A DNA stretch of 61,043 nt, the filler included, from Sphacelaria rigidula (lineage: Eukaryota): the NCBI GenBank assembly GCA_964200075.2. It is 8 parts of 8 records of this genome, joined end to end, with 100 filler letters (N's around TTAATTAATTAA, not from the genome) between each part and the next. Parts side by side here need not be neighbours in the genome. Positions count along the whole stretch, not along the records: positions 38,216 to 45,758 come from CAXNAA020014420.1; 7 more parts are not named here. One strand, 5' to 3'. The translations under genes and the position numbers were made by a program. Below are positions 7,544 through 53,501 of the stretch, piece after piece. The notes under the pieces were generated by a model. That model was given only the letters and a program-made list of their open reading frames with translations, ran no database searches and was not told the origin of the DNA. Numbering within the stretch: position 1 is the stretch's first letter; each line of letters begins with the position of its first letter.

Positions 7544-7643
7544 NNNNNNNNNNNNNNNNNNNNNNNNNNNNNNNNNNNNNNNNNNNNTTAATTAATTAAN
7601 NNNNNNNNNNNNNNNNNNNNNNNNNNNNNNNNNNNNNNNNNNN
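7544..7643. other. Artificial contig linker
   Basis: N-run / TTAATTAATTAA (stops in all six frames) / N-run, 100 bp. Confidence 0.99.
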
Positions 7644-7698: not shown

Positions 7699-8066
7699 CT
7701 GTTTGTCGTGGGGGGGGGGGGGGGGGGGGGGGACTGCGCATTCTTGTTCTGACACCTGGAAACAACCTCTGTTGGCACTTTTTCCATTTGTTTCAACCGG
7801 CATCAATCCACCAATGCCGCGGACATACAACCGGTTGGCGAATGCATGCCGAAGTCGTGCGCTTGCTTGACGCCCCCCTTCGCACAAGAGAAAAATCGTG
7901 CGTGAGGCTGCGCCTGCCACCGCCACAGAGTGGTACACACAAAATACAGAGGCGCTACAGTACCCAATGGGCTGAATGACTTCTAGCAGCACCCAACTCA
8001 TGGTCTCAACGGCGACCAAACTACTTTCTGCCGTTCTCTTGTTGATGTGGCAGCGACCGAACGCAC

Positions 8067-8463
8067 CTGCTACTGCCACTGCTGCTGCCGCTGCTGCTTC
8101 CAGTATCGCTGTCACTGCCACTGTCACTGTCGCTCTCGCTCCCACTGCTGCTGCTGCCGCTGCTGCTACCGCTGCTGCTACCGCTGCTGCTGTTACTGCT
8201 GTCACTGTCACTGTCGCTCTCGCTGCCACTGCTGCTGCTGCTGCTGCTTGACTCGCCCCTCCGCCGTTTCTTACCCGCTAGCTTAGATGAAGTATCGTTC
8301 TTCAGTTTCTTCTGCTTCTTCTTAAGCTCGGCATCCCTTTCCGCTTCCTCTGGGGGTAAGTCGAGGTGAAACTTGGGTTTGAGCGTGGGGTTCTCGAGGA
8401 TTTTGGTCCGAGACACGCGGGCCTTGTATGTTGCTTTCCCCTTGCACTCGTACGTCCAATGAC
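8067..8463 (-). CDS. ZCCHC10: ZCCHC10-like zinc-knuckle protein, exon with knuckle C-half, Lys-rich and Ser-rich tail
   Basis: TTTTTTCAG acceptor, then (G)HWTYECKGKATYKARVSRTKIL...KKRRR followed by poly-Ser/Asp. Putative donor AG|GTGCGT at 8066. Architecture matches the zf-CCHC_3/ZCCHC10 family. Confidence 0.85.
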
Positions 8464-8947
8464 CTGAAAAAAATATGAAATAAAAATTTCGTAAGACGAA
8501 AGGGAACAAGAGTAGAGGTAGAGGACAAAATACGTGACATGTCCGGTGGGTAGATACACCAGTTTCGGGCGATTTTTTTAGGGGAATATTTTGCAATAAG
8601 GACGTCCGACCACTGACGTACAGCTTACACGGACGACTGCTTGGCATGTGCGATAGACGCCCTGGCTGAGTCCGAGACGTCTAACGAGGACACGCGGCAT
8701 TGGAACTATCTGGTAAAACACGGGCGTGTATGTGTAGTACTAGACGGGCGGTACACGTATGTGGCACCGAAAAAGGGAATGCTTACGGATGAGACAGAGG
8801 AGCGGGTACTCCGGCGAACTGACCGAAGAACCTAACAGCAAGGGGTGTGTTTACCGTCCAGAACGCGGTGCATACTGATTGCAGATTTAATGCACAGAAC
8901 GGTGTCGGCAACTCACTCCGCGGTTTTTCTATATATCGTCTTCTCAC

Positions 8948-13799: not shown

Positions 13800-15130
13800 T
13801 GGTTTCTGACTAGAAGAAGTGGCCTCAATAATTGGTGTACAAACACCTCAAGAGATCGGTGGGTCTTGGTGGAAGGCAATCCGGGGGGCAGCAGTTCATA
13901 AAGGACGAGAACGGCGTCCTACTGAGGAACAAAATTGCCATCCTTGAACGGGAGGCGAGGTTCTCCCGCACACGGCTCAACGCCAAATCGCTCACGCTGA
14001 ACCCAGCCATCATCGAGGAGGTGAAGCTGCGACCGGCAGCTTCAACCATCGGTGATTCGGTACCGCTCGGGGCAGGACCAACACTGGAGGAACCCAGACG
14101 AGCAGTCCGGGGGATGCACAACTGGAGAGCGCCAGGACACGACTCTCTTCCCGTGGAGCTACTCAAAATCGACGACCGCCCCGAACCCATCGTCCTCGAA
14201 CTTCCATACCATTCTCGTCGAGGTATGGAACGGAGGGGCGGCCCCGCAGGAGTGAAAAAATGAAATGATCAAGATGCTGTGCAAGAAACCGGACCGGTCC
14301 ATCTGCTATAACTACAGGGGGATCTCTCTGATATCGCACGCAGGGAAAGTGTTCCTGAAGATAGTGGCCAACCGCCTCAGCGACTACTGCGAAACGCACG
14401 GGATATTACCGGAGGAACAGTGCGGGTTCCGACCTGACCGATCCACTGTCGACATGCTGTTCGTAGTGCGCTGACTCCAGGAGCTGGGGCGGCGGCGGAG
14501 AATACCGCTGTACATGTGCTTCGTCGACCTCTAGACGACATATGACTCGGTCGACCGCAAGATTCTGTGACAGGTACTGACCTGAGCTGGTACTCCGGAT
14601 AAGATGATCGCAGTTATCCGCCAATTCCACGACGGTATGCAGGCTCGCGTACGTATGGACGACGGGGAGCTCTCGGAGTGGTTTGAAGTCACACGGAGAT
14701 TGCGACAAGGATGTGTACTGTCTCCACTGCTGTTCAACATCTTCTTCGCGGCAGTGCTCGAGATAGTCCTCGTGCGATTCAGCGAGGATGGTATCATCAT
14801 GAAGGACGTGGTATATCTCCATGAGGAGACGGGGAGGGGGGCGGAGACACCGCTGAAATGCGTACGGAGAGCGGTATGGGGAATGCTGTGTGCCGACGAT
14901 GCCGGGGTCGTCTCGAGATCTCCCGACGGACTGGCGAGGATGATGACATCATAGGGGACGTGTTTGGGGTCTTTGGACTGACCGTATCGGAGAAGAAGAC
15001 GGAGACTCTCTTGATGCGCGTACCGAGGAAAGCACCGAAGAAGGCGGAGTCACCAGCACAATCTCCCCCACCGCTGATCATCGAAGCAGCGGGCCAGAAA
15101 TACGCCCAGAAAACTAGTTTCCGATACTTA
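13800..15130 (+). pseudogene. RTE-like non-LTR retrotransposon (LINE) reverse transcriptase, inactivated
   Basis: Motifs [61 protein letters not shown] and FRYLG, with several stops and frameshifts. Confidence 0.95.
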
Positions 15131-15186
15131 GGTGTACTCATGATCATGCATGCCATAGTCATCAGACCATTGACCTCGCATCCCTA
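15131..15186 (-). mobile_element. 3' tail of SINE-like family T2, interrupting the LINE RT; cut by contig end
   Basis: GGTGTACTCATGATCATGCATGCCATAGTCATCAGACCATTGACCTCGCATCCCTA matches 44510-44562, 37764-37813 and (inverted) 17219-17257. Confidence 0.8.
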
Positions 15187-15286
15187 NNNNNNNNNNNNNN
15201 NNNNNNNNNNNNNNNNNNNNNNNNNNNNNNTTAATTAATTAANNNNNNNNNNNNNNNNNNNNNNNNNNNNNNNNNNNNNNNNNNNN
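15187..15286. other. Artificial contig linker
   Basis: N-run / TTAATTAATTAA / N-run. Confidence 0.99.
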
Positions 15287-15892: not shown

Positions 15893-16985
15893 TTCAATGC
15901 AGTATAGAACTATGCGGCAAGTGTAATGCGACCCCTTTCGAACTTCTCGCCATTGTGTTGCATATCCAGCTTGGGGAATTTCCCTTAGATTTGTCGAGTT
16001 GAATGAGGTCAGGATTCGAAGCCAGCACGTTTCTTCCACGAGCGATACAGAGGTATCTCTTGATATCGCCAATATGGAAAGGAAAATTGTCCTCGAGGGA
16101 CATTTTTAGGAATGAACCCCTTCTATCCACATCTATGCAATATATATGACAGGTCCAGGGCACGTGGACGGTTCAAGGCCACAGTATTCTAGTCGGAAGC
16201 AATAGTTACTCTGGTTTGCTTCGTGCAGTTATTCTGGAATCAAAGGAGAATCTTTTTACGGACGTCTGTTTGAATGAGTCAAAACTCCAACAACAAAAAT
16301 ACTATTGAAATGGCGGCCTTTAGGTTTCAAGTGTCAAATCCCGCGGGGAAGATCACCGGAAACGCATGTTTCGTACGTAGTGGGATCAGTCTGTACAGCA
16401 TTGAAGTTTGGTCACCGCCGTTTGTGCTCGCTTCCAATTTTTTCTCGAAACGTTGCCTGAATTGGCGGTGGAAGTGCTGAGACCTTCAGTTGGCGTCTGT
16501 GAAGGCGAGTTCGGCCCGATTATGACAAACGTTACATTTACCCCCCTTAACTCGATATCTTTGAGTCAATTCCCCGGCTGGGTTTTTCGATCACCTGCCG
16601 TCAAGACTCCGGATTGGACATATCGGGTGAAGGAACGGTCATTTTCCGATGAAGTGAAGATCAAAATGAAGAAGCGATCTACTCGGATCCGGCGTCTCCG
16701 AAGATGATCCTGTCGACACTTTTACCCAGACGACCGCGGAAGTATCCCTTGGTGCTTCCACGCAAGTTTCGGGGGAACCTGCATGCTGAAATATGACAAC
16801 ATGATCGTACCCACCTCTTGGTAGGTGAAGATGCCAGCAATCTTCCGAGCTGCGCGTAATCCGCCCTCTTCCGTAACGGCCAAGCTGCCAAACCACGGGA
16901 ATGTTCCTCTGCCCTCCAGATGCTGACCAACACCAATTACGTCCCCCTGCCACAGGATGCTATCCCGGTATGTTGACGACCTAAA

Positions 16986-17279
16986 GAGTCATCCTACGAT
17001 AGCGGGGGGGGGGGTATTTTGGGCCATTTGTCGCTCCGAATTTCGAGTCAGATTGTCGTTGAAAGCAGCAACGATTGTTCGAACAAGCTTGTTGTGGATC
17101 AAAAACGCTCATCCATACTGCCTGACACCGTTTGGAACCACATACAAGCGCACCGCAAGTGTGGAAGGATGTCTGACACACTTATGAGCCTCTTTTTTTG
17201 TGCAACCAAATACCCCCCAATGGTCTTATGACTATGGCAAGCATGATCATGAGTACACCCCCCTATCGTAGGATGACTC
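16986..17279. mobile_element. Second GAG...CTC MITE family (Sola2-like), 4-bp TSD TAAA
   Basis: TAAA|GAGTCATCCTACGATAG ... CTATCGTAGGATGACTC|TAAA. The right arm is interrupted by a T2 tail. Confidence 0.85.
17219..17257 (+). mobile_element. T2 retroposon tail inserted into a C-run
   Basis: CCCCCC-AATGGTCTTATGACTATGGCAAGCATGATCATGAGTACA-CCCCCC. Confidence 0.8.
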
Positions 17280-19726
17280 TAAACAACCAACGAATCACAA
17301 ACGATGGCAAGCAGCGTTTTGCGCAGGTGATCAGTCGCGTGTGAGACAAAACAATATGTCGGACACCTGCAAAACAGTTGCGGATCATAAGTGCTAGCGC
17401 TACAGCGTAAAAACGCTCTGCGGATAGGTGTGCACGCACCAAACAAGTGGCCGTCGCTCAAGCCGGCTGCATGGAAAACAGTAGACTTGAGACCTCAACA
17501 GACTCGGGACGTCACGCAACCAAGATTCTTCAGGATCGATGCTTTTTCTACATTGGATATGATCATCTGCCCTACGACACGAGGTACTGCCGCCGTGGTA
17601 GTAAAAAGCATTCTGTCCCCCAACCCTGTGGTCACTCTCCTCCGTCACACAGGTGATTACTTCTGTAACGTACGTACCTTCCTCCGCCGGACAGAACTCT
17701 GCCTCCAACTGCCAACGCTACCACCACGACCGCGCCAGAAAGCAGTTTGCTCCACCACCCTCCACGGCGGGCTACCGTGTGCTCTGCTCTAACACCGTTG
17801 AATACCTCCTCATGTTCGTTGCCCTCGCGGACAGGCTGCTGCTGCCCTTATTGTGCGCCCGCCCCCGCTCGGTCTCTGTTCTCGTCCGACCCATCGTCTG
17901 CTCTCCGCTCGTCGTCACCTGTGCCACCGCCGAGAAGCACCGCCTGTGTGTCCGCCACCGCTGGCCCACCGCCGGCATCTCCGGATCGATTTTTCACAGC
18001 CAGAATCGCGCCCTCCTGCCCCTGCCCCGGCAACGTCTGTTCACCACCAGTCATGTTCACACCCTTCTCCGCCAACACAGGCTCGTCAGGTGGCCCGGCG
18101 GGGGCGGCCGCACCGCTGGGGTGCCTCCGCTCGGCGGCAGGCGCGTTATGGTCAGAATCGATCGTATCTTGCACCGCGTATTGGACATCACCGTCAGCTG
18201 CTTCCTCCGCCTCAACGGATGCCACCGGCCGGACGAGATTCTCTCCCAGTGTGCGCATGCCTGCCGCGGTCGGCGCCGCTGCCACTGCCGTTGCCGCTGC
18301 CGCCGCCGTCGAAACTCCCCTCGCTGCCGCTGCTGCCGCTCGCACTCCCTCGGCATCTTGTTCACAGCGTGTGTTCCTTGTAGTAAAGCATTCTGCTGTC
18401 GACTCTGGCAGGCATTCAGTTGCGGTGACAATCGATTGGAGGGTGGGATGTTGGCGATGGCATCTGCACACACGAGCGCATCCAAACGTCCCAAGGACCC
18501 CCCGAACACGGTGGCGACGAACTGCGGAGGTGCGATCAATACCGTTTTGTGGGTGGATTGCATGCGTACTCAGTAACATCTGATACCAGGTGTAGGACGC
18601 GTCTTTAGCGCGGAGACGAACGTAGACTATGCACAACGGCAGGTAGATGCTTTAGGAATACTACTTCGACGTGCCTCAGTGGAATCTGAGTAAGCAGTAC
18701 TTGTCAATAGACTGGCAGTTTTGATTCATCGGATGCATCGTGAGCGGCCATCTTGTGCGACGTGCTTACTCAACTCAACTACATGAGTACACGTCAAACA
18801 CGCGCCCAAGTGCCGAAAACACCAACCTATACACACGTGACGAAGGAGTGCACGAGACAAACGTCGAATCTCAAGATGGCATGAAAAGTAAACCGCAAAC
18901 GAATTTACGTAGCACGCTGTCAGCTCCGTCACTGCACCTCTACAACCAGAGGTCCAGGGACAACATACTGCACACGCCTACGCATCTAACTAGCTCGACG
19001 CAAAAAGAGACGAATCAGTCAGTCGCACCAAGCCCACAACCGTATACGCGCCTGGATTCGACCAACAAAAGATGGTGCAAGGAATGCAGCGGTGACGAGG
19101 CCACAGCCAAAGCACACCGAACTGAAAGGACCAGTAACGGTCGACATGAAACCAAGTAGATCATGGACATGTCTCAGAGAGTGTATCTTACCAGCCGCCG
19201 GCGTTGGTGGCGGCAGGATCAGGGGTGTGTGCGCCACCGACAAGCCAGCGCTTAATTGCGGTAGAGGCATGCAAATGCGAGTGTCGGGACCAGGCTGTAC
19301 GAACTTCTGACCTCCCCCCATATTGGGCCCTTGGCCGTCAACGTCGGCGGCGCCGCGGGTGCCGGCGCGGCTGCCTACGCGGGTGCCGGCAAGACTCGCA
19401 ACGTTGCAATTGCTGCCCTGCTCATCTTGACCGTGGTTGCTACAAGAAGTGGGGCGGTGACGGCGGCGGTGGGGGCAACAGGTATGCGCCCACGGTTCAA
19501 ACGCGGGAGCCGCATGTCATTCGGTGGCCAATATTTTGAAACACCTGCAAGTTGGAACGGGTACTCGAGTGATTCAGCCCTCCTTATTTTGGTTCCTCTG
19601 CCGCATTCCGGGCTAGCCGCCTAGCTGCGCATGTGACGCAGGAATGTCGATTTGAGCTCGAACGGGCCACGACACAGAGGCCAGACAGCAATTGTCCCAC
19701 AAGCGCTTTTCGAATCCATGTTGTTC

Positions 19727-22829: not shown

Positions 22830-22929
22830 NNNNNNNNNNNNNNNNNNNNNNNNNNNNNNNNNNNNNNNNNNNNTTAATTAATTAANNNNNNNNNNNNNNN
22901 NNNNNNNNNNNNNNNNNNNNNNNNNNNNN
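22830..22929. other. Artificial contig linker
   Basis: N-run / TTAATTAATTAA / N-run. Confidence 0.99.
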
Positions 22930-25682
22930 GGTGGGGGGGGGGGGGGGGGGGGAGGGGGGTATTTGAGGCCAACATTTTTTGCATTATCGATAAAAAGTTT
23001 GTTGCAGCTAGTTTTCCATCATTTTGACGGCAGCTCTTTCAAGGCCAAAACTGTTGCAACAGCTGTACAGTAGATGGGAAGGGGGAGTGTTGATGTTTGT
23101 GCAACGAATGCAAAATGGAGTTCGGTACGGGGATTGTTGGCAGTATATGTATTGTTTTTGTGGATGAATCAGTGTGTCGTTGGTGTTTCTGTCTTGTCTC
23201 GTCTTGTGTTTGTTTTTTTGTTTGTTTTAGCAGATCTCACAATGTTACGAACGCGCATTCCAACACGAGGGGTCTATGAAGTCGTTTGCAGTTGTCTTGG
23301 GGTCGGGAGAGCGACAGGAGGAGGTACTATGGGGACAGCACGGGAGGAAAGGCATGGAAGGGTTAATCCCTCCTCCATCATATTTTGTTTCTTTTAACCC
23401 TGGATCGTTTACTACTCTCGTAAATCAACCCTTTCTATCCTGCAAAAGGGGGTCGAAACTGCATTGACCACGTATCCCTTTCGACACGGAACACGTTGGA
23501 ATAGAAAGGAGGGGGGCGTGGATGAAGGCAATGCATACGAGAGATTTCCCCAGTGTCTTTTGCCCAAACTAGGGATGACGAAAGTACGTGCAATACGTGA
23601 TACATCATATGCCGTGCCATGGTGGTTGCAGCGGTCGAGGTGACTCGAGTGGGGCATACAAATTGTGTATTTGGATCATACGGCTGTATATCACCATCTC
23701 CCGCCTTTCCCACATGACAGACCTTATTGAGTCGATTTTGAAGGAGTGGCTGGGGGCTGAGGGGGAGGGTGGAGGGGGGGGTGGAGGCTTGTGTTTAATG
23801 TGAGAAGGATATTTAATTTCTCCCGCATGCCGGGAGAAAGTAGATATTACTTTGTCATGATCCACCCGCACATACCCGCTTTTTCCCTCCAACTTTTCAC
23901 CTTTTGATCTTCCAGCTTCCTGTAGTTTCTCCTTGATTCTTGCTTTCGTCGTTGATTCTGCTTTGTTGCGGGGGATGGAGGAGGTCAGGGGGGGCAGGGG
24001 GGGCAGCCGTGACGTGAGCTGATACAGACTATGTGCAGTTTAGGGGGCTGTTGCGCATGAAGTGAAACTATTTTTTTTATGCAAGTCTTTGAAAAGAAAT
24101 AGATTGTGCAAGTCTCCCGTTCTCTTGTATGTCTTTTGGATGGGGGGGGGGGAAGAGACTTGCGCGTTCCATTTTCGATACATGGCAATTACGGAAAAGC
24201 GGAGGGATCCGCGTCATGAAGACGGCCTCCGAGGCAGTGTGTGGTTTTTTTCACTCACGTAAATGATGGCCACAAAACGCACATCGTGCCGTTTGCTAGC
24301 AGAACGTGTTATTTGCTTCCCTACAGAAAGTACTCATGTTTTCATTATTTTTTGTTGACCGTTGTTTGCGCCGTGTAGGTTTAGTCACGTACTCGTTTGC
24401 AGTGGCGTAGGTTTTCGTGATATCTTCGCAAAATGTCCGGTTGAGACGTTTTGACGTTGAGGGCTGTAGTGCTACTGTAGCTCAACTAGGGGAAATGTGT
24501 TATACGTCTGTTTTTTTTTTCTTTGTTGTCCGTCGGGAATTTCTCCTGCTCGTTGCTGTTCTCTATACTTTTTTCGGGTGATGTGTGTACGTTTTTCCGT
24601 CTTTTTTCACTAGTAGAGGAAGACCTCAACTCCTTACCTAGCTGCACTCTTGCTGTGGCGGCAAAGAAAGAAAACACGCGAAAAACTAAACTCAAAATAC
24701 AAATGCAACGTTTTGATATGGCGGGCGCTGCGCTTCGAGACTCGCAAGAATTTTGTCTGCATTACTGGGTTCTTACTCCTCCAGAGTCAGCATCAATGAA
24801 TATGATGAGATGCATGTTTATTTCGACGCAGGTTCAGTTTTCGGCGAAGTAACTGCTACGCTCATGCTACCGATTACTTTAGCGGTGCTTGAATTTCGGG
24901 TGGCTTTTTGACGATTCTGTGGGGATGATCGGGGGGGGGGGGGGGGGGGGGGGGGGGGTCACGAATAGGCGGACTGAAATACTAGCTGGCTGGCTGGCTC
25001 AGTTACAACCTGAACGAAATTTAGTCGATCGAAAACAATCGTTTTCTCTTGTGTCAGATGGATTCGTCGATGGGGTGTTAGGATGTGTATCGGGAGAGGG
25101 GCCGGCCGTCGGCCGTGTGTAATTCACCGAAGGACGGCAGATTTGGAGAGCGAATCGGGATGAGGAAACGGGTGGGGTGTTTCGTGTGCAGTAGTTTGAA
25201 GCGGTTGCTGTCCACGGAGCATGAGAATCATGCAACATTCACATGGCAACATTGATGACTGCGTGATGACTGCTTGCAGTGTGGCGTTACTCGAGCCCCT
25301 CGCACTTTGTTGACGAAACGGAAAAAGGTTTTTCGCGTCACGTATCACTGCTGTACCACTGCCTTTTCAACTATTTTAGAGTACACTAGAAAGCGCACCA
25401 CCGGTCCGCCTCTCCACACAGGGTAGACAATGGTAGTTGAGGTTGTTGAGTGTATGGTCGATGACGTTCTCTCTCCACGATGATTCTTCTGTTTATTGCA
25501 GCGCAACACTTGTTCTAGGTAAACAACAAAACGTGAGATTATGCGGAGGCGTGTTTTTGTCGTTTCTCTCCTCACCGCACTGCTAGCCAACGCACACGTG
25601 AGCCTGTTTCCTCGACCTGTTGTGCTGATAATTCGTGGCGCTCGGTGATCAATGTTGTAGGAGGGGTGTGTGGGGTGGGAGG

Positions 25683-25740
25683 CGTACGTCTTTGGTGCTT
25701 GCCTTAGTCGTTTGACCATTGACCACGCATCTTTGGAGCA
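25683..25740 (-). mobile_element. T1 mini-retroposon (LINE 3' tail only)
   Basis: GCTTGCCTTAGTCGTTTGACCATTGACCACGCATC...GGAGCA matches 34633-34698 and 45024-45089. GGGAGG on both flanks. Confidence 0.75.
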
Positions 25741-30472: not shown

Positions 30473-30572
30473 NNNNNNNNNNNNNNNNNNNNNNNNNNNN
30501 NNNNNNNNNNNNNNNNTTAATTAATTAANNNNNNNNNNNNNNNNNNNNNNNNNNNNNNNNNNNNNNNNNNNN
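30473..30572. other. Artificial contig linker
   Basis: N-run / TTAATTAATTAA / N-run. Confidence 0.99.
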
Positions 30573-32393: not shown

Positions 32394-33457
32394 GATGTGA
32401 TACCACTCCCCTCACGCCTGACTATTTATTTGACCCTTCGACCGTTTTGGGTCATGTGGGTCTTACTTTCACATTTTCCAGTAAAACCGATGGCGATCCA
32501 ACAGATGACCTACCCTAGCGGTCAAACGTTCAAGAGTCTCGCAGTAAACAGTCCCTGCAGATGTACAACAAAAGGGCGTCTGCAGAATCTACTCCGCAGT
32601 CTTCAGATTTTACAAACACTGTAGATCTGCAGCACTTCGACAGGCGAGGCGTGCCCAGAATTCATGGTGGGCGTGCACAGTCAGTCAGATGTGTGAGTCG
32701 TGACCGTGTCGAGTGACCGCAAAAGCGGTAGTCAAGCGGCGCCCTCACTGCTGTGCATGAAAAATTGTCCCAACAGAATTTCTGGTTTGCGGACAGAGGG
32801 CATGACATGAAACATTAAATTTCGATGACATACCCTTTCGTCGCGGACGCCAGCGTGTACGAATTGGCTACCAAAAAGCACACTAAATCTCAAACAATCC
32901 ACACCAGACCCAAGTGCAACTATAAAATTTCACTACTGTATGTAGATATGTTGGTGACATACGCAAAACATGCACACACGGCTGCTTTGAGGAAGGGATA
33001 CACTAAACTCGGCCCACTCATTCCAAAAAAAGGTATTCAATAATCCGTCCGTCACCTACATCAATCATCTCAATCGAAATCGAAGCGCAACAGAAAAAAC
33101 TCAAGACGTACATCGCATATACAAATCATAAATCCGGCATAACCTTTACGAACAGCATGGCTGCACGATACAAGCACTGCACATTCGGCGTCAAAAGCAT
33201 GTCACAAAGGTGGTGTCAGGTCCAATCGCGTAGACATCAACGTCAAAGTGCTGCGGACAGCACACCGTAGGGAGCGGGAGGAGGGTTTGACAAAATTTTC
33301 CTCTCAAGCGTTTCGGAAGAAAACAAATTCACGAGCGGTAGCAACCTCGTACCATCATCTCGCAACTTTCTCCTGGGGGACATTGCTTCCGTCACGATCA
33401 CATCTTGATATCCAAGCCTTCCGGAAGACAGCTAGGTACGCGCCAAAATCCATTCGC

Positions 33458-33580
33458 AAGCCCCACAGCCCCGCCCTCAACCCCCCTATCGATACATAAA
33501 CCTCAACAACCATGACCAAGACCCCACAGCCCCGCCCGCAACCCCCCTTTGGATACATGAACCTCAACAACCATGACCAA
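33458..33580. repeat. ~60-bp tandem duplication
   Basis: CCCCACAGCCCCGCCC...GATACAT.AACCTCAACAACCATGACCAA occurs twice. Confidence 0.85.
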
Positions 33581-34632
33581 CGTGCTCAACCTTGCTGAAA
33601 ACGCCCAGTATACGTGGACAAACATTTCTATGCGCCGTCTGCCCTAACATTTTTGCCCAGCACTAACTGATACACCCTGCGTTTCTCTGAACAACAGCTT
33701 TGCACCCCCACCTAGATCAATTCAAAAAGCACCCCTCCCTCGAAATTCCCCGCGTAAGTTTGATGAACATTTTGATCAGCCACCACCTCCCTTGCATGAT
33801 TAATTATATCCACAAGTCGAAATCTAGGGTCCCAGCAAAAGTTCAGTCCCCTTGGGTATGACATCTGCAGCAAAGAGTGCCAGCACCGGCGCGCTGGGGT
33901 CTTGATTGGCAGTGTGCACGGCGACCCTCAGCAAATTGGAGCCTGCCTCTGTGCGCGCCCGGCGAAGGTATCTGTGAGCAATACGATTTGTCGGCACGAC
34001 ATGGGATGGTTATCGATTGCGTCCGCATTGCGTACAGAACTCGAAACACGGGGATGGGTGAGCGCAGCTCGCCATCAGAAATGTTGAGTCACGATAAATA
34101 ATCCCAGGTCCGCAAAACACAGATCGACGAGAACGCACGACGCTGCGTTTGGTGTCGTTTTACCATGTGAAAAGAAGCCGCAACGCAGTCACCTTTGAGT
34201 AAAATATGCGGTGGTGTAATGGGAATAGTGTCGAGACCACTCATTAAAGGGACATACACTTCACCACATGTGCCCATGGAATACCAAACACCCTCGATCA
34301 TTAGTCACGCTAGGAGATAACTCTAGTTGCTGTGTTCAAACAAGGTCCCGGTTTCGAACACGGCCCTCGCCAACGCGACAAATACAAAGTGAAGCTGAGA
34401 TGAAATTAAGCGGGAACCACAGAGTCGCACAAACGGTGAGAGACCGGACAAAGCAAGTTTCACGAGCTCACAAAAATCTCGTCAGGAAAGTGTTGGCCGG
34501 GGCGCCGAACACACGCCCCGAATTTGTGACCATCGGTGCAAAATTTCTCACCGACACACAGCCGGCAAACAGCGTTCCACGATTAAAAGGATTTTCTTCG
34601 TAAAGATAACCAAAGCCTCGTGAAGGGGGGGG

Positions 34633-34698
34633 CGTACTCATTTGTTGCTTGCCTTAGTCATTTGACCATTGACCACGCATCCCTTTCGAGACGGAGCA
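34633..34698 (-). mobile_element. T1 mini-retroposon (LINE 3' tail only)
   Basis: Matches the end of the LINE at ~45110-45175. Flanked by AAGGGGGGG and AAGGGAGGG. Confidence 0.85.
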
Positions 34699-36958: not shown

Positions 36959-37763
36959 GCGATGGTATCTCGAAAAAGATCAGACTCATCTCTATCAATC
37001 GAGATCACTCGATGCGCAATAACAAAAATCATAATCACGATCACTATCACAATCATAACCTAAACCAACATCAAAACCTCAGTCAGACAACAAGGACGCT
37101 CAAACACGGAGTATGTGTAACCATGTACTTCGAAGTATGATCCACAAATGCCCTCGCACAAGCCATACACACCACTGTGACTCCGCCAACCCCTTGCCCT
37201 GTCCCATGATATATCACGATTTGGATCATGACCCTGCTCGTGCAACTCATCTCTCGTACACACCTACCCCTGATCTTGTGAGGGGTGAAAAGGGACGGAT
37301 CGAGCAGATAAAAATAAACACATGACAATGACACCCACATGCGAGCAAATCCTCATCCTCTCTCCCTCTCTCACACACCTACAAGCACACGCGTGCACAA
37401 ACCTACAGCATTCACTGCATTGCTCATCGGCGTGAATTCGTCGCTCACCACTTCAATCACATGCTAATCCCCTCAACGACGGACCGATTCACACCCTTGA
37501 CCGATCGCAACAACGTTGAGGCTCCTGAAAATCCTCACCTGGCCCGCCACGGTACACACAAAGCCTCGTTTCGGAATGTCTTCCGCGGCTTCCACCCCCC
37601 AGGGACCGCACATGACAGAGACATTTTCGGGCGTCTGCGCGAAATGCGTCACCTGTCGGAACACAGCAGGCAACCCAGTGAAAGTCCAAAAAGAGTTTGC
37701 GGTACGACGTGTCAGCCGATTACTGCACATGTCGAGGTGGGGGGGGGGGGGGGGGGGGGGGGG

Positions 37764-37813
37764 ATACTCATGATCTTGCATGCCGTAGTTTTAAGACTTT
37801 TGACCTCTGTCTA
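37764..37813 (-). mobile_element. T2 retroposon tail abutting a ~25-nt G run
   Basis: GAGGT(G)n-ATACTCATGATCTTGCATGCCGTAG...TGACCTC. Confidence 0.75.
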
Positions 37814-38115: not shown

Positions 38116-38215
38116 NNNNNNNNNNNNNNNNNNNNNNNNNNNNNNNNNNNNNNNNNNNNTTAATTAATTAANNNNNNNNNNNNNNNNNNNNNNNNNNNNN
38201 NNNNNNNNNNNNNNN
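38116..38215. other. Artificial contig linker
   Basis: N-run / TTAATTAATTAA / N-run. Confidence 0.99.
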
Positions 38216-38274
38216 GTGCTCCTAACATTTCTAACCTCGGAAATTATTTCTGTACCCCTACCGTAGCATCACTC
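38216..38274. mobile_element. MITE family A, right end only (contig start)
   Basis: GCTCCTAACATTTCTAACCTC...ACCCCTACCGTAGCATCACTC. Confidence 0.8.
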
Positions 38275-38364
38275 AGCTCATCCTGAATGCCAGGGCGTCT
38301 TGATCGCAGCTTCAGGGTGATGATTTATTTTCGTTTTTATTGGGGGTTTTGGTTGCCTCAATAC

Positions 38365-38595
38365 ATTCACATAATAAGCTCTTCGCCCGTTGCTCACAGA
38401 GAGAGTAAAACCAAGGGTCGCACCCGGTCATGCAACCACGGCGCACACGGAGGCGTGTCTGTAGTCATTACGAACGGACACCCTCCTTCTCCTTTAGTTG
38501 GAATACCCGTAGGTCACATCCCTCCGAGTCCGTCAGTCGAATAGCTGGGTTCATCCTCGTATTACCCTTCCATCATTACGCCGCGATTCATAACA
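38365..38595 (-). mobile_element. Solo/partial LTR
   Basis: Collinear with 27634-27877; ends CATAACA; no adjacent PPT. Confidence 0.7.
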
Positions 38596-41500
38596 AGACA
38601 ACACACACCTCGTAGCTTGGGTCGCTGCTGATCCGGTCAAGTTGTCAGCGATGTCCCGAACGGTGGGCTCTCGATCCCTGTCATGTGTGAAGAATTTCCC
38701 TAGGCGAAGCTTCACGAGTTAAGAAACCAGGCATGAGAATTGGGGGCACACACGTGGACAGAGAGCACCCTGTTGGACGTGCTGCACAGGGTTCTTCGCA
38801 GTTTTTGTGAGAACCCCTGTACGGCATTTACAAACCCTAATACCTCTACCAGCATTTTAGCGTTTTTCTCGACACCCTGTAAGTAACCCCGTGGAAAGGC
38901 ACTCCCAATTTTAACATTCCAAATTATTTTGTCACAAAATCAGTAAATACATTTATTCAGAGAAGCAGTTCGAAAAAAAACAAATCGCCCTATTTCATTG
39001 GGCAAAAAACGATTTATTTCGAACAGATTCTTCTGCTGTACAAATCTCATCATATTGGCAGGTTTGGAATATCAACAGAAGAAGCTGCTCGATATAAATC
39101 CTCACTTTGTCCGCCAATTCATATGGAAATTGGGAAAGAAAAGAACTTTTTGTGAACAGTCTCAGCTGTGCAAGTTCCGCATACTTCACCGTAATCAGCA
39201 GATGAGACTCGAGATGCAGCAAAAGTTGTTGGAAATAATAATCCTCTTGCCCCGCAATTAATATATCATTTGGGCTAAAGGATGAAATTCTCAACAGCTT
39301 TCGCTGAATACAAATCACACACCGCTTACAAGTGTATGTCCGCACGATTGTGCTTCGAAGCGACGCTTCTCCTGCAGGCGTGGGGAAGATGCTGGATTGT
39401 CGGTCTATACCCCGCACGTCTCCGCACATTTTTATTATTATTATTATTATTATTTCCGCACATTAGTCCGATCTCGCGAACCCGTGGTCACAGACGTAGG
39501 NNNNNNNNNNAGGCTCGCCTTTCCAATACCGTCCCTGCTATTCCTTACCAGACACATTATCAGAATAAAGAAAAAAATAGCTCATGAAAACACAGTCGTC
39601 AAATGTCTACCAAAATAAACGAAATGATATTTTAGGTCAGAAACGCGAAAAAACACTGAATCAATTATGCTTCCGTTCACGAAGGGTTTGGTTGATATAC
39701 ACTAGAAGCGCACAAATGACCCCCTTGTCAACAACGAACCGTGGGTGGTTCAATGTATACCACGATGTACTCGCTATCATCAACGCACGAGTTCAAAACG
39801 TACCACTGCCATGTTTCGACCGTTTTTTCTGCCAGTACCGGGCCTGTGCTGTAAGGTGGAGCATATTGTATGTGCGTTATAATACTATACATCACATTCA
39901 CAACAATGAACCGTACACGAGGTGACAATACCCTATGAAACGTTCTGTGTGGCGCAAAAAAACACCCTACAGCCAAATACCTGCGAGAAACATTGCACAG
40001 TTTCCCTGAACCCTGTAGACGTGCCCCACAGGGTGCTATCTGTCCACGTGGACAGCTCGAATTCGATCACGTGCTTGAACACCCCCTTCACCTCACCCAC
40101 GGATAGCGTCGCCACGCACAAACGAAGACAACGCAGAAAGCAGCAATATAGTTGAACCTTCTTGAGGGTGAGCGAAGTGATGTGGAGAGCCGGTTGCCGC
40201 GTGTGATGCCTCCAACCTCCAAAAGTAACCTCCGAAGATGCCTCGATTAAAGTTGCGACAGTCAAGTCTGAGAAGTTCAATCAAGGGCCGCGCTGCTCGA
40301 AAAAGGTCGACTTGGTGTGTTCTTGAGTATGCCCAGAGACAGAAGCGAAACACCACGTCGTGAGCATCAACATAGCTGAAAATTGTTGAGGGCGTCTCAA
40401 TTGATGTTAGAAGAGCGACGGTATGGTGTTTTCGCGCAGCGCGGTTCCGAATACATTCGGAAAGACACAATGCGTGCTTCGGAGCGTCGTAATGATGTCC
40501 GGACGGACACTTTTTTAATTTAGGATCAGTAGAACCCGTTTGAGCCCTGGGAGCCTCAAATGAATTGCTTATAGCGTGAAGAGGCGCGATCCACGCCACG
40601 ACGAGCTAGGATATATTTTCTCGAAAGAAGTCACACGCTTGACCGCATTGCTGCGTGGCCTCGTTGGCGACGTCGAGAAAAGTATACGAAAACGACATGT
40701 TTCTCGTGGTACTGTACATGGAATCGGGAGTTTTGGAGACAAATAGCCGAGCGGTAAGAGACCTACATCTGCGCGCGGCAGAAAGCCCTTGAAAAACGTT
40801 TTACATCGATGCAAGCTTCGACCCTACGGGCCTCATCCAACTTAAATTTGAATCAAACGAGTTCTGCAGGATTGCTATTGTTTCCATCACTAGGAGGAAG
40901 AGAAATTCAAAGTAGGGGGGGGGGTGCCGAAAGACCACAAAAATGACACCTCGACTACCTCGTACAAAGTTTGCATCTTCCGCCCAGGACCGTGACCGCT
41001 GGTGATCGAGTCTATCTTCCCCTCCCCCCAAAAAACAGAAATAACTACATATTCGCCGTAACAAATAATATGTGTTGTATATGTGTTGTCCTTGAACAAT
41101 TCTGTTGACATCGAACGCAAGGGCAAGCGACAGAAAAAAATAGAACCTAGCCATCAGGCGACCGAGACACCCGCGAGTGAAGCCACTGAACTACCACCAG
41201 AGTCAAACCTGCATGCAAAATTAGTTGATGCAGCGATGACAAGCTTAATCAACCACCGACTGGTCCACTGCGTTGCAAAGAGAGGACCTTCGCAGGAGAA
41301 ACCGAGAAGAGAACACCACGATAATGGAGCCTAAGCGTACACTATCGCCCCCATTCCTCACTATAACCGAGCTTGGGAAATGAACGGACAAAAATGAAAA
41401 CATGCAAAATGTTACCCCTTTGCCATGGGCGTCCTTTAGTAGTGAGTAACAAAGGCAATGGTGGGAACTACAACAACTGAAAAGGAGCAGTGACAAGCAC

Positions 41501-41929
41501 GGACACAACACAAGAAAACAAACGCTACGTATCGTGTCAGTACAAGGAGTATGTAATGCATACGCTGGTACGATAAAGCCGAAAACATCGGCCGAACTGC
41601 CAGGTCGAGCAGCGCGGGTAAGCTTCATCGCCTTTTCATGCTATACCCCTTCCTGCTTAAGGTATGATCTTCGTGATGGATGCGCCAGGTAGTACAGACA
41701 TTGGGGACTCAGTGTCTGTCCGACTCCCGCCAGAAACGTTTCCGATTGACGAACGATGATTGGCCCGGCAGCGAGAGGATGGGCCGTCTATTTCCCCCGC
41801 TCGTAGTCATTAGCGATACTCACTCATCGTCCTCCGGCAACGGTCCGCAGTCGTCGGGGTACACGTTGGGGCAAACCTGATCGGACGGATCGGCAGCAGC
41901 GGGAAGCGAGACGAGATATAGGCATTGAC

Positions 41930-42650
41930 GAGATCTAAGTCGTGATATGTGATGGACGCACGAGCATACGAATACACGGGATTTTCGCCTTCGCATTGCC
42001 ACTGGCAAGCAAATTTGGCAATTTGCTATTCCCGCCTTCCGTGGTCTATAACTTAGTGCTGCGCACTGCCAAGAGGAAAGAGAATGAAATATATGCAGTG
42101 CTGAGCCTCGTGCGCAGTGCGCTGCACAGCGGCACCCACCACAACAGAGTGGATTGCAGTAAACGTAAGTAAAACACAACGAAATGCACTGCTTCGATCA
42201 CCGACAGAAGAGACCTTTTCCGACCCTACGGGGGAACAGCTCGTGCCGAAACCTTTCGGAGCAGGCCATCGTGCACTTTTTGCGGGATATTTGCACGAAT
42301 CCAAACGCGTTGAAAGCGCTCGGTGAAAGCACCAGCAGCATAGCTACCACGCTACTATGCTGCTGGAAGCGGCCGTGGCGCCCTCGGTGTAGAGTCCGTG
42401 CAGGATACGAAACCCTCCGTTACTACACGGCAAGTATTTAATTGGTTTCGACATTTCACAATATCCAGAACTCTCAACATGCTCTCTAAGTATGTTGCTG
42501 CGTGCTCCCATTGTGCGTTGAGCATTACTATATGTGTGCATTGCAGGGGTGGGGCAGGGGTGTTGGAGTCAAACGCGGCATCGTAGATGAAAAAACATGC
42601 TGTTGTAGTACATGGGCCAAAAGCACGGCAAATTACTGTCCATGGGGGGG
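41930..42650 (+). pseudogene. Possible degraded Mutator/MULE transposase
   Basis: Frameshift-scrambled motifs in the expected order: VIC-DG/TH, KENE..VLSLVRSAL, TD/RQK, and a SWIM-like VDEKTCCCSTW. Confidence 0.4.
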
Positions 42651-43152
42651 GCGTGGTTACAGTGTCAGTTTTACGCAAATCACGGTTAGCCATGTATACT
42701 ATGGCAATCGGTAGTGATAAACTTGCAACGCAAGGAGTACTGTACATTCAATGTATCAAGTGGAAAGTGTCTTACGCTGGCATCGTTTCCCTCGAACACG
42801 GTGTCAGACGGGTATGTCGTGGTAGTCACCACGGGATCTTCGCCGCGTATGCTGTTGTAGATAGCCGCACCGTTCTGGTAGGCTCGATTGCCGGTGAACG
42901 AGGTGGACCCCGTGAGCCTGGTACGATCACGACGACGGCAGCGGCGACGGGAACGGATGGCAATGAGTACTGGACAGTCTCGCATATTACCATTCCAACG
43001 GGCCGTGGTGTGGTGGTGTGCCGCTTATGAAAATCACGCCGTAGTCATCAGATCGTTGAACTCGCGTCCCACATTGCCGGGCTGAGCGGTATACTTTGTT
43101 TTCGGCGAGCCAGCCTGCATTACAAAATTACCACACACATTCTATGGGGGTG

Positions 43153-43670
43153 TGCAGGATGAAAGTTTACTCATGTTTTTTTATACCGTATTAATAGCCA
43201 TACACTCACCATTGACCTCGCATCCCTACTAAGCCGGGACGAAGCACGCTGGGTTTTCGTCGGACAAGCTCGCAATCAATCACCCAGCGCGAAGCGCCGT
43301 GATGTGTTCGGCGAGTTGCAGGCACGGTGAGCCGCATCCTACTACCGAGATTGTCCGACCCGAAGCATACTGATTATCTTACATTTGGATGACAGCCTAC
43401 AATGAGTTGCTTCATTTCCTGGTTTCGCCATTTCCAGAGACAGCCACGGCTTACACACTGCCTCATGAGTAAAATTAATACACGTGGTATTATCATCCCC
43501 TTTTTGCGGAATCGAGGTTCTCCCACCCCGCACAATATGATCTAGCTCGACCACCATGAGAGTTATCGCAAGAACAACGCAAGCGCGCAAAACGAATCGC
43601 TCACCTGGTTGTCTAACTTACGCAGTCAGTGTCGTGTTCTACAGCATCATGGCCAACCGACGCCAACCCC
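43153..43670 (-). mobile_element. Full-length T2 SINE-like retroposon (copy 1), TSD ATGGGGGTG
   Basis: Collinear with 44510-44995 and has the same 5' end (GGGTTGGCGTCGGTT). ATGGGGGTG at 43144-43152 and 43671-43679. Confidence 0.75.
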
Positions 43671-44509
43671 ATGGGGGTGGGGGTGACGGACCAACAGAGT
43701 TACCCATGGGAAATGATTCCGGCCTGCAGTTCTGGAGTTCGCGTTCGATGATCAAATAACGATGCAGCTTGACGGAGCTAGACTGAACGGTGGGTGGAAG
43801 AATATAATGCGGAGGTGACTGGGCACGTGAACATTTCATTGTGTATACGAATCCTCCCCTGCGGGGGCAATACATCCGGAAAGGTATATGAGCACCACAT
43901 CCTCTACTTTATTTAAAGAGTACGAACACACCTCACCCCGTCATTCATCAAGCCGGCAGCTTGGAACCCGTGCAGTACGGTACCAAGTTCTACATCCACC
44001 CACCGCGGCACCCATCAGCCAGACACAAAGAAACATGCTGTCCACCAAGTAAGTGTTGCACTTGCGACAGCGCTCAGCCGGAGCGTTCTCAGTCAAGGCA
44101 GTTAATTCACCAGCGGTGATCGATAGCATCGTAATAGTGGGTTGGAGACGAGAGAATGTAGAATTATAACGAGAAGTGTGGGTGGGACAATGAACAATTA
44201 TTTTCGACGCCATCTCGAACAGGAAAGAGTGCCCCCCCAAAAACACGAAATTTGTGGAAAGGAACAAGCCAGGTGATTTGAGTGCAAGAAAGCATTCGAA
44301 ACAAAATGAACGGTATTGCTTCCTCCAGCACGACGTAATAGCGATTCACACAGGGTGGAAGAGCTCTAAGGCTTGCACCGATATATGTCAACAAAGAACG
44401 ACATTCAGTGCAAAAAAAGTATAAAATAATCGAGAATATTGCCAGTAACGGGTGGAAACCGATGCAACAAACGGACGTCGGGAATGTTCCCAATGAGGTC
44501 GAGGGGGGG

Positions 44510-44995
44510 TGTACTCATGATCTTGCATGCCGTAGTCAGAAGACCGCTGACCTCGCACCCCTAGATAGCCGGGTTTTCGCTGGACCAGGCTCGCAATCAT
44601 CAGTACGAAGCGCCGTGATGTGCTCGGCGAGTCCCATCAAGGGTAAGCTCCATCCCGCTGAGATTATTCAACTCGAAGCGTGTTGATTATCTTGCATATG
44701 GATGAGAGCCTCCTATAAGTTGCTTCATTCTCTGGTATCGCCAACTCCAGAGGCAGTCACGAGCTACAGAATGCCTCATGGGTGTCTCACCAAATAAAAA
44801 ACACGTATTAACAATATTGTGCGATCATCGACTTTGCACGTAGCTCCGGCTCTCCCACCCCGCACAATATGATCTAGTCCTACCACCATCATGGTTACCG
44901 CAAAAAAACGCAAGCAAAAAAAACGATAGCCTGATTGCCTAGCTTACGCAGTGAGTGGCGTGTTTTACAGCGTCGTTGGTAACCGACGCCAACCC
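44510..44995 (-). mobile_element. Full-length T2 SINE-like retroposon (copy 2)
   Basis: Flanked by AATGAGGTCGAGGGGGG and AACGAGGTGGAGGGGGG. Its 3' tail is homologous to the LINE tail. Confidence 0.8.
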
Positions 44996-45023
44996 TGGAA
45001 CGAGGTGGAGGGGGGATGGGGTA

Positions 45024-45089
45024 CGTACTCATTTGTTGCTCGCCTTAGTCGGGTGACCATTGACCGCGGATCTTTTTCGAGACGGAGCA
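45024..45089 (-). mobile_element. T1 mini-retroposon between duplicated G-rich targets
   Basis: Same boundaries as 34633-34698. CGAGGTGGAGGGGG on both sides. Confidence 0.8.
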
Positions 45090-45109
45090 TTGGACGAGGT
45101 GGAGGGGGT

Positions 45110-45758
45110 CGTCCTCATCTTTCGCTTGCCTTAGTCGTGTGACCGTTGACCACGCATTCCTTTCGAAACGGAGCACCGTTTCTACTCCTAAAAGAGACAC
45201 CTCCAACATTCCAGCGCTCATTACGTTTCTTCCACAGCTCATCGCGCTTCTTTAATACATTACACAAAAGCCTTTTACGTGTCTTCTCCCCATCCTGGTT
45301 CGCCGTCTGTGGCCACCATCTATCTTCTAGTGTAACCATTGTTTTCTCCCTACTGTCTAATGCATCAAACGACTCCATGCCACCTTCGCTTACGTCCCGC
45401 ATTTCCCCCTTTAGCACGTCCCGTTCCTCCTTGTATACATTATGTCACTATATGACTTCTGCTCTCTATGCCTTTGCCACAGAAGCACTTCTGTCCATCT
45501 ACTTCCTCCTCCTTTCGACGACTGGTATATCTCTTCCTTCTTTCTGGCAGGTCCAGGTCCCCCACCCGAAATCGCAATTTCGTAGTTTTCGCAGGGTCGA
45601 GTGGGTCATGCAAATGTGCTTCCAGTCCCATCCCCTCTCCCAACCACCCGTATATCTCAAGGTGATCTTCCTCGTCTACTTTGCGTCTGAGCGCTCCTTT
45701 TCCCCTTATTTCGATCATGTCTCTTACTTTTGCCTTGTTCTCCGCTTCTTCACCTATG
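45110..45758 (-). pseudogene. LINE ORF2 C-terminus with CCHC-type finger and 3' end (non-RTE family)
   Basis: KLRFRVGDLDLPERRKRY...KCFCGKGIESRSHIV...GVSFRSRNGAPFRKECVVNGHTTKAS. The last codons are the T1 tail sequence. Confidence 0.8.
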
Positions 45759-45858
45759 NNNNNNNNNNNNNNNNNNNNNNNNNNNNNNNNNNNNNNNNNN
45801 NNTTAATTAATTAANNNNNNNNNNNNNNNNNNNNNNNNNNNNNNNNNNNNNNNNNNNN
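45759..45858. other. Artificial contig linker
   Basis: N-run / TTAATTAATTAA / N-run. Confidence 0.99.
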
Positions 45859-53401: not shown

Positions 53402-53501
53402 NNNNNNNNNNNNNNNNNNNNNNNNNNNNNNNNNNNNNNNNNNNNTTAATTAATTAANNNNNNNNNNNNNNNNNNNNNNNNNNNNNNNNNNNNNNNNNNN
53501 N
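53402..53501. other. Artificial contig linker
   Basis: N-run / TTAATTAATTAA / N-run. Confidence 0.99.

Follow-up and report, generated by a model that had tools for sequence, protein, structure and literature searches.

Serial Retroposon Insertions Probably Stacked at a Self-Renewing C-Run in the Genome of Sphacelaria rigidula

Introduction

In the genome of the brown alga Sphacelaria rigidula (assembly GCA_964200075.2), the G-rich word GACGAGGTGGAGGGGG recurs three times within a short distance, each time beside the end of a retroposon. The question raised by this locus is what the word represents, and why three elements have come to lie at it. A preliminary description took the whole motif to be a duplicated target, and proposed a system in which a long interspersed nuclear element (LINE) and a partner resembling a short interspersed nuclear element (SINE) are directed to G-rich sites by a target-selective endonuclease. 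The present analysis of the 61,043-nt stretch of DNA carrying the locus (the window) leads us to assign a probability of roughly 0.78 to the reading that one brown-algal LINE family and its dependants inserted three times in succession, through target-primed reverse transcription (TPRT), at a C-run target that renews itself.

The window consists of eight 7543-nt chunks placed end to end and separated by linkers (Table 1), with runs of N recurring every 7643 nt. Since the chunks were joined artificially, the distances and the synteny between them carry no meaning. The array falls in chunk 6 (38216-45758), and its LINE copy ends at 45758 owing to the chunk end and the linker, not to biology. Apart from the linkers, there is a 10-N gap at 39501-39510.

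Candidate Host Duplications Separate the Three Elements

With up to three mismatches allowed, the motif matches the window at six positions as compared with the 0.36 expected from shuffled sequences, and none of 100 shuffles reached six; its threefold occurrence in the array (Table 1) is thus confirmed. Each of these three copies adjoins the 3' end of a retroposon in the same orientation, and the sizes previously proposed for the elements (about 490 bp, 66 bp, and a LINE) are correct. A fourth match (37731-37746) also adjoins an element tail, called t8 here, and the remaining two (starting at 40082 and 59718) are next to nothing recognisable. All three array elements are on the minus strand: on the plus strand, each motif is followed by a retroposon 3' end in reverse complement. 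Read in the sense of the elements, the array consists of the LINE copy C, a spacer X1, a unit B, a spacer X2, a unit A, and a flank X3, followed by unique DNA. B starts with TGCTCC at 45089 and runs for 66 nt to GAGTACG, followed by TACCCCAT and (C)6 at 45010-45015, and A starts with GGGTTGGCG at 44995 and ends in a (C)7 tail at 44503-44509.

The two spacers and the flank are closely similar. X1 and X2 agree at 13 of 14 positions with one indel, a score reached by none of 2000 shuffles, as would be expected of the target-site duplication (TSD) of B. X2 and X3, the candidate TSD of A, agree at 9 of 11 positions in register from the first base after the C-run, and only 19 of the 120512 11-mers in the window match X2 equally well. 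Judging from these alignments, the 11-14 nt following the C-run in X1, X2, and X3 behave as duplicated host DNA in the form of nested TSDs. The previous suggestion that one site was used repeatedly is thus upheld, while the duplicated sequence turns out to be these 11-14 nt rather than the whole motif. X occurs after the three array tails only: the other seven tails in the window and two copies from outside it (L001 and L002, see below) have different 3' flanks, and X3 continues into unique DNA. The TSDs vary in length among copies (9 to 14 nt) and 5'-truncated copies are present (t2 and A''), which is the combination expected of retrotransposons without long terminal repeats (non-LTR).

The order of two of the events can be read from the junctions. 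X1 and X2 share a terminal CCA which is not present in X3, as if the duplication accompanying B had taken in three bases from the 5' junction of A; we therefore infer that B was probably inserted after A.

The G-Run of the Motif as an Element Tail

A profile of the tail run with nhmmer on the whole window gave eight strong copies (E 6e-19 to 6e-14) and a ninth, degenerate one at 43035-43068 (E 9e-5). Two further copies are carried by A' and by a 33-nt fragment at 23462-23494(-), which makes about 11 tails per 60 kb sampled. The tail core GCTTGCCTTAGTCR, searched for with up to three mismatches, gave 14 matches versus 7.1 expected; seven of these are true tails, and the eighth tail (37778) was found separately. 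The strong tails end in ...GGTC-N4-GACTA-N-GGC-NN-GC...ATGAGTAC(R), apart from a small number of substitutions in certain copies.

A C-run follows the tail in each case, its length being 2 in t1, 6 in t2, 8 in t4, 7 in A, 4+6 in B, 5 in C, and 25 in t8, while that of t3 is degenerate; in the external copies L001 and L002, the LINE 3' end is followed by C9-T-C9 and C13, respectively. The sequence downstream of the C-run varies from one locus to another. The G's of the motif, numbering 5-7, are contiguous with the element tails and likewise vary in number. The fact that the tails end in a C-run of variable length beyond which the flanks differ means that the G's of the motif correspond to a homopolymer tail read on the opposite strand. 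GGGGG therefore represents the (C)n tail of the elements, together with whatever C's the duplicated target contributed, and not a separate target word. The association of the insertions with G/C runs instead of T-rich sites, as initially proposed, still stands, whereas the GGGGG put forward as the target does not, since it belongs to the elements and amounts to between 2 and 25 C's elsewhere. The base following the C-run is T in six of the eight window tails in which it is readable.

A hairpin with a variable loop, GGTC-N4-GACT, is predicted in the tail, and each of its seven pairs is kept in at least seven of the eight copies. No compensatory changes were found at any of the seven predicted pairs in these eight tails, and a conserved 3' hairpin serving as a recognition signal was dropped as a candidate.

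Long G-runs are also present elsewhere on the plus strand (23, 20, 28, and 25 nt at 7710-7732, 22933-22952, 24931-24958, and 37739-37763, among others), the longest run of A or T in the window being 12. Only the run at 37739-37763 adjoins a recognisable tail of the RTE-X type discussed below.

The LINE and Its Non-Coding Partners

The C-terminus of the second open reading frame (ORF2) of copy C is split over two minus-strand frames (45443-45757 and 45118-45444). Since it contains one in-frame stop and one frameshift, copy C is a pseudogene. Its coding part ends with a TGA stop (45115-45117), which is followed by a 6-nt 3' untranslated region (UTR; 45109-45114) and a (C)5 tail (45104-45108). 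In BLASTP comparisons, the two frames matched residues 1129-1225 (64% identity, E 1e-27) and 1230-1328 (49%, E 5e-25) of P0004, a full-length relative (1328 aa) in which a single ORF carries both the endonuclease (EN) domain Exo_endo_phos (142-383) and the reverse transcriptase (RT) domain RVT_1 (710-959). Copy C holds only the last 200 codons or so in the window, its own RT and EN lying past the chunk end. Judged by P0004, its nearest full-length relative, the LINE is a non-LTR retrotransposon of the apurinic/apyrimidinic endonuclease (APE) type, which, as far as that relative allows, answers the question previously posed between this type and a restriction-like endonuclease. Among named proteins, those most similar to the fragment come from Ectocarpus sp. 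and S. rigidula, and the C-terminus of ORF2 is about 58-63% identical to the Ectocarpus proteins found. The names of the 120 listed relatives of P0004 bear no clade label and were therefore uninformative for classification; likened to the descriptions in a published Ectocarpus catalogue of transposable elements, the LINE most probably belongs to the RTE-X clade.

The coding sequence runs through the conserved tail: P0004 ends in ...VVNGQMTKASNK, and the window copy in ...VVNGHTTKASER followed by TGA. Since the stop is only 6 nt from the C5 tail, the 3' region common to the LINE and its non-coding partners is the end of the coding sequence. The 3' layout of the element thus consists of an ORF reaching almost to the end, a stop, 5-6 nt, and a (C)n homopolymer of variable length.

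A single scan of genome contigs gave the two external LINE 3' ends, which are about 72-76% identical to copy C. The contigs carrying them, JBDWQI010000325.1 (L001) and CBRFFM010000043.1 (L002), are filed as bacterial metagenome-assembled genomes and look like algal DNA binned with bacteria.

The last 57 nt or so of A are homologous to the LINE 3' end, and the SINE-type and LINE-type tails align over the same length, in line with the initial view that the LINE and its non-coding partners share a 3' end. No coding hit was obtained over the 493 nt of A, which shows 72% identity to 43248-43669 in the related copy A'. A, A', and a further degenerate copy, A'', lie in one orientation within 2 kb, and the A-type units in the window measure 493-518 nt. 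ARAGORN predicted no genes, and Rfam gave no matches at the gathering score in the whole window, nor any at E up to 1 over 42900-45300. An RNA polymerase III (pol III) origin of the head of A from tRNA, 5S, or 7SL sequences was therefore rejected, and A is SINE-like without having the head of a SINE in the strict sense. In L002, an A-type head directly follows the LINE tail at the C-run, without any spacer (22 of 27 positions identical, a match reached by none of 1000 shuffles).

The 66-nt unit represented by B consists of the last 20 codons of the LINE, the stop, and 5 nt, followed by (C)n. Four such tail-only copies, starting with TGCTCC or TGTTCC, are present in the window, at 45022-45089(-), 34633-34698(-), 25686-25740(-), and 23462-23494(-). 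B, t3 (25740), and t4 (34698) start at the identical base, and the fragment at 23462-23494 within 1-4 nt of it. In addition, t4 and the LINE 3' end of L002 show 100% identity over 74 nt, and the homology stops exactly where the 66-nt unit starts. This suggests that the unit is a discrete retroposed unit, and not the result of random 5' truncation. Two linked readings, namely that the 66-nt unit is itself an independent retroposon and that this family is a main source of the very long C/G homopolymers in the genome, are put forward tentatively, as possibilities which we regard as rather doubtful. If they are true, the 66-nt unit would be the minimal RNA recognised by the reverse transcriptase, and among the smallest LINE-dependent elements known.

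C-Rich Insertion Sites

A' is flanked by an exact, C-rich, 9-nt TSD, CACCCCCAT, at 43671-43679 and 43144-43152 (2 of 2000 shuffles reach the score). Among the five 5' junctions located away from other tails, four (A', t4, t3, and t2) have at least 7 C's in the upstream 12 nt, the background being 2.5%. At one of these, t2 lies within an inverted repeat and interrupts the C-run of one arm, while the other arm has retained an unbroken C11.

The 35-nt inverted repeat entered by t2 (AAATA, C-run, CTATCGTAGGATGACTCT) resembles a miniature inverted-repeat transposable element; its arms, at 16985-17019 and 17208-17280, are separated by about 190 nt. A similar end, ...CAAATA plus a C-run, is present at a chunk start (22933-22959, minus strand).

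Several observations weigh against serial insertion at C-runs, or limit what the locus can tell about it. All the statistics come from 10 window copies and 2 external copies. The fifth independent 5' junction (23494) has only 4 C's in 12 nt, with a C6 run lying 17-22 nt upstream. In the comparison between X2 and X3, only the in-register count is significant, a free local alignment being equalled in 246 of 2000 shuffles. The TSDs of t4 and t3 are C-rich without being individually significant (375 and 914 of 2000 shuffles, respectively), and that of A'' is ambiguous, since the C-run alone aligns (39 of 2000 shuffles). Copy C has its 5' end, and with it its TSD, beyond the chunk, and may have been inserted before or after B. 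Lastly, six bases of X, ACCTCG, stand directly after the C25 of t8 in another chunk (37728-37738, minus strand), and an exact 12-mer of X, TCCACCTCGTTC, occurs on the same strand as the array and 1.6 kb from it, at 42896-42907(-), where it neither adjoins an element nor follows a C-run; the chance of this occurring in one chunk is estimated at about 1 in 1000. These two occurrences could reflect a sequence preference extending beyond the C-run, or chance. An explanation of the 12-mer in terms of a repeated coding motif was dropped, as tblastn searches with the ORFs of chunk 6 against the chunk gave nothing below E 0.04.

Alternatives to Serial Insertion

Local tandem duplication of a tail and its flank, by unequal crossing-over or replication slippage, would make B a diverged duplicate of the tail of C, and it was named in the preliminary description itself as a case that would speak against serial insertion. 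B and the tail of C are indeed adjacent, alike in length, and each followed by nearly the same 14 nt. B is closer, however, to t4 at another locus (85.3% identity) than to the tail of C (76.5%), and although this argument, based on about 66 nt, is weak if B and C are old and t4 is young, B also lacks all the private differences of C and agrees with t4 and L002 at those sites. Its 5' limit moreover coincides with those of the tail-only copies at other loci, which would not be the case with a random breakpoint, and since A is an unrelated unit of about 500 nt, the resemblance between X2 and X3 is left unaccounted for. We consider that duplication of this kind is unlikely to have produced the array.

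Two other explanations take the sequence following the C-run to be more than a host duplication. X might be part of the elements, the C-run being internal and the true 3' end being the C-run plus TCCACCTCG; the chain would then result from a single event in which the reverse transcriptase jumped from the 5' end of one template to the 3' end of another. The presence of X after all three array tails, its six bases following t8, and the absence of a spacer in L002 are consistent with this idea, which seems to us very improbable given that unrelated sequence follows the C-run in 7 of the 10 window tails and in both external LINE copies, that the X 12-mer at 42896-42907 stands without any element, and that X3 passes into unique DNA. 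Alternatively, the endonuclease might recognise the C-run plus TCCACCTCG as one longer word, in the manner of site-specific LINEs, and so have struck three times. ACCTCG after the tail of t8 and the T following most C-runs speak in favor of such a word, and the 12-mer free of any element gives a hint of it. The 3' flanks of t1, t2, t4, A', L001, and L002, however, have nothing but the C-run in common with X, as would not be expected of a site-specific LINE, and TCCACCTCGTTC is not enriched in the window when up to two mismatches are allowed (8 matches versus 4.4 expected, with 9 of 100 shuffles reaching 8). Recognition of this kind is therefore also improbable. We thus retain serial TPRT at a C-run, in which X is host DNA copied anew at each event.

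A Possible History of the Array

By analogy with L1, the bottom strand would be nicked at a G-run, and the resulting ...GGG-3' end might anneal to the (C)n tail of the RNA and so act as the primer for cDNA synthesis. The top strand would then be cut 0-14 nt further on, and because of this offset, the element would come to be flanked by a duplication starting with the C-run. Under this scheme, A would have been inserted first, at a site consisting of a C-run plus TCCACCTCGTT; B, preceded or followed by C, would have entered upstream, both of them where a C-run stands before the same host sequence. Every event would have duplicated the host sequence again, yielding X1, X2, and X3. Tail plus TSD, read in reverse complement, give the motif from which the question started.

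As each insertion leaves copies of the target headed by a C-run, the site would renew itself and arrays would grow. This would explain the C-B-A array, the A'-A'' pair, the LINE tail followed by an A-type head in L002, and the tandem copies mentioned in the Ectocarpus catalogue. If this is true, the arrays are self-seeding, a longer C-run being placed beside a fresh copy of the site at each insertion.

A target-selective endonuclease, as originally proposed, does not follow from this pattern, which would equally arise if a primer ending in G's paired with the C-tailed RNA; the preference for G-runs may be the endonuclease's own or come from priming. The pairing of a G-run primer with a (C)n RNA end provides at least a concrete model which can be tested. 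In practice, a motif found to recur beside element ends should be tested first as a tail plus a TSD.

Similarities to Other Retroposons

The kind of system seen here has already been described in the Ectocarpus catalogue, as far as its RTE-X entries considered here show: (C)n tails, C-rich TSDs, and tandem copies are all recorded there (PMC12477816). RTEX-1_Ec32 is listed as having a "single EN-RT ORF; (C)n 3'" and RTEX-2_Ec32 as having "(C)n termini/TSD", and the TSD is given as "C-rich" in all the RTE-X rows, while the other families of LINEs and Penelope-like elements in the same table end in (CAA)n, (CA)n, or (A)n (PMC12477816). The non-autonomous RTEX-N1_Ec32 (607 bp), the 5' head of which is said to be unknown, "can be present in tandem" and its "60 bp 3' end" is 83% identical to RTEX-1_Ec32/RTEX-2_Ec32; RTEX-N2_Ec32 measures 188 bp (PMC12477816). 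RTEX-N1 is described there as the most abundant single Ectocarpus family, with more than 6000 copies, and is not classed as a SINE, since a pol III head was lacking (PMC12477816).

Compared by description only, the window elements match these entries feature by feature: both have a (C)n 3' end, C-rich TSDs, a partner sharing about 60 nt of 3' end, tandem copies, a single EN-RT ORF (seen here in the relative P0004), and a very high copy number. They differ in the length of the partner (493-518 nt here, 607 and 188 nt there) and in the discrete 66-nt unit, which is absent from the rows examined. The array is therefore a neat but ordinary example of stacking, which gives a single-locus view of the way in which a (C)n-tailed LINE family builds the tandem arrays that are the subject of a passing remark in the catalogue entries concerned. 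As such elements are among the most abundant brown-algal repeats, their choice of target shapes the structure of introns and intergenic regions and may feed homopolymer instability. In the kelp Saccharina japonica, the RTE-X LINE RTEX-1 has been reported to be recently active, in passages which are silent about its tail, TSD, or partner (PMC4421812). Literature searches on non-LTR retrotransposons combining poly(C) tails with TPRT gave no results, and those on the target sites of RTE-X elements gave nothing on algae among the papers listed.

Mammalian L1 and Alu have a poly(A) tail and a TTTT/AA nick site, and new insertions occur in the A-tails of older copies. The elements studied here would work in a similar way: the strand that primes at the nick would be complementary to their homopolymer tail, each TSD starts with the tail base, a non-autonomous partner is mobilised, and old tails serve as new targets. 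They differ from them in that the homopolymer consists of C instead of A, the partner is recognised via a shared 3' sequence and not via the tail alone, and the clades are unrelated (L1 versus RTE-like). LINE/SINE pairs of the stringent type, such as UnaL2/UnaSINE1 in the eel and the SINEs derived from RTE/Bov-B, also share their 3' ends. The shared 3' end is about 60 nt long in UnaL2/UnaSINE1-type pairs as it is here, and the 3' UTR is very short here, as in RTE; in the present case, however, the shared region is coding and the predicted hairpin is devoid of compensatory changes. LINEs of the insect R1 clade insert into microsatellites, with strict site specificity for the repeat array. Both they and the present elements enter a simple-sequence tract resembling their own end, but here the short C-run alone is common to the targets.

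Other Features of the Window

The positions of the array components, the other tail copies, and the linkers are listed in Table 1.

Table 1. Features located in the window, with the strand and the evidence or remarks available for each of them (t1-t4 and t8 are tail copies outside the array)
Feature	Positions	Strand	Evidence or remarks
Motif match, 3 mismatches	44492-44507		
Motif match, 1 mismatch	44999-45014		
Motif match, 0 mismatches	45093-45108		
LINE copy C, 3' part only	45104..45758	-	Translations, BLASTP to P0004; element-sense 3' end ...ATGAGGACGA-C5
X1, 14-nt spacer, element sense TCCACCTCGTCCAA	45090..45103	-	3' flank of C and putative 5' TSD of B
B, tail-only LINE-type unit, 66 nt plus broken C-run	45010..45089	-	Alignments; element-sense 3' end ...ATGAGTACGTACCCCAT-C6
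X2, 14-nt spacer TCCACCTCGTTCCA	44996..45009	-	Putative 3' TSD of B and 5' TSD of A
A, 493-nt SINE-like non-coding unit	44503..44995	-	Alignments; element-sense 3' end ...ATGAGTACA-C7
X3, 3' flank of A TCGACCTCATTGGG	44489..44502	-	First 11 nt, putative 3' TSD of A
A', second A-family copy, degenerate tail	43153..43670	-	TSD-flanked, alignments
A'', 5'-truncated degenerate A-type copy directly 3' of A', boundaries approximate	43016..43120	-	nhmmer, by eye
t1, SINE-type tail, two C's only, cut by chunk end	15131..15186	-	nhmmer
t2, 39-nt SINE-type tail fragment plus (C)6	17219..17263	+	Inside C-run of inverted-repeat arm
t3, LINE-type tail unit, small internal deletion, degenerate C-rich tail, chunk 4	25677..25740	-	nhmmer, alignments
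t4, 66-nt LINE-type unit plus (C)8, chunk 5	34625..34698	-	Alignments
t8, SINE-type tail with (C)25, chunk 5	37739..37811	-	nhmmer
Linkers, 100 nt each	7544-7643, 15187-15286, 22830-22929, 30473-30572, 38116-38215, 45759-45858, 53402-53501		44 N + TTAATTAATTAA + 44 N

The G + C content of the window is about 49%. All 260 listed stop-to-stop ORFs of at least 80 aa were scanned against Pfam, and only one match above the curated cut-off was obtained, zf-CCHC_3 at 8024-8680(-). A whole-protein score slightly over the cut-off, with no single stretch passing it, was found for Chlam_PMP at 42689-43024(-), and three further matches, RVT_1 (14586-14951, plus strand), New_glue, and L37e, were under it. 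The scarcity of Pfam matches among the ORFs indicates that the DNA is repeat-rich eukaryotic sequence.

The zinc-knuckle ORF at 8024-8680(-) (E 1.8e-10) has as its closest named relatives two Ascophyllum nodosum proteins, to which it is 67% identical across one third of its length, and probably represents an exon of a host gene resembling ZCCHC10. The reverse-transcriptase fragment at 14586-14951(+) (E 1.9e-6; 28.2 bits versus a cut-off of 29.6) and tail t1, which lies nearby, are on opposite strands, and the fragment is thus part of another element. The weak Chlam_PMP repeat match (E 2.4e-4; 21.5 bits versus a cut-off of 20.6) may be the remnant of a beta-helix repeat gene. Lastly, two neighbouring units of about 61 nt at 33440-33570(+), the ends of which read ...CCCCACAGCCCCGCCC-N-CAA-C6-T..GATACAT.AACCTCAACAACC, form a short tandem repeat with a C-run.

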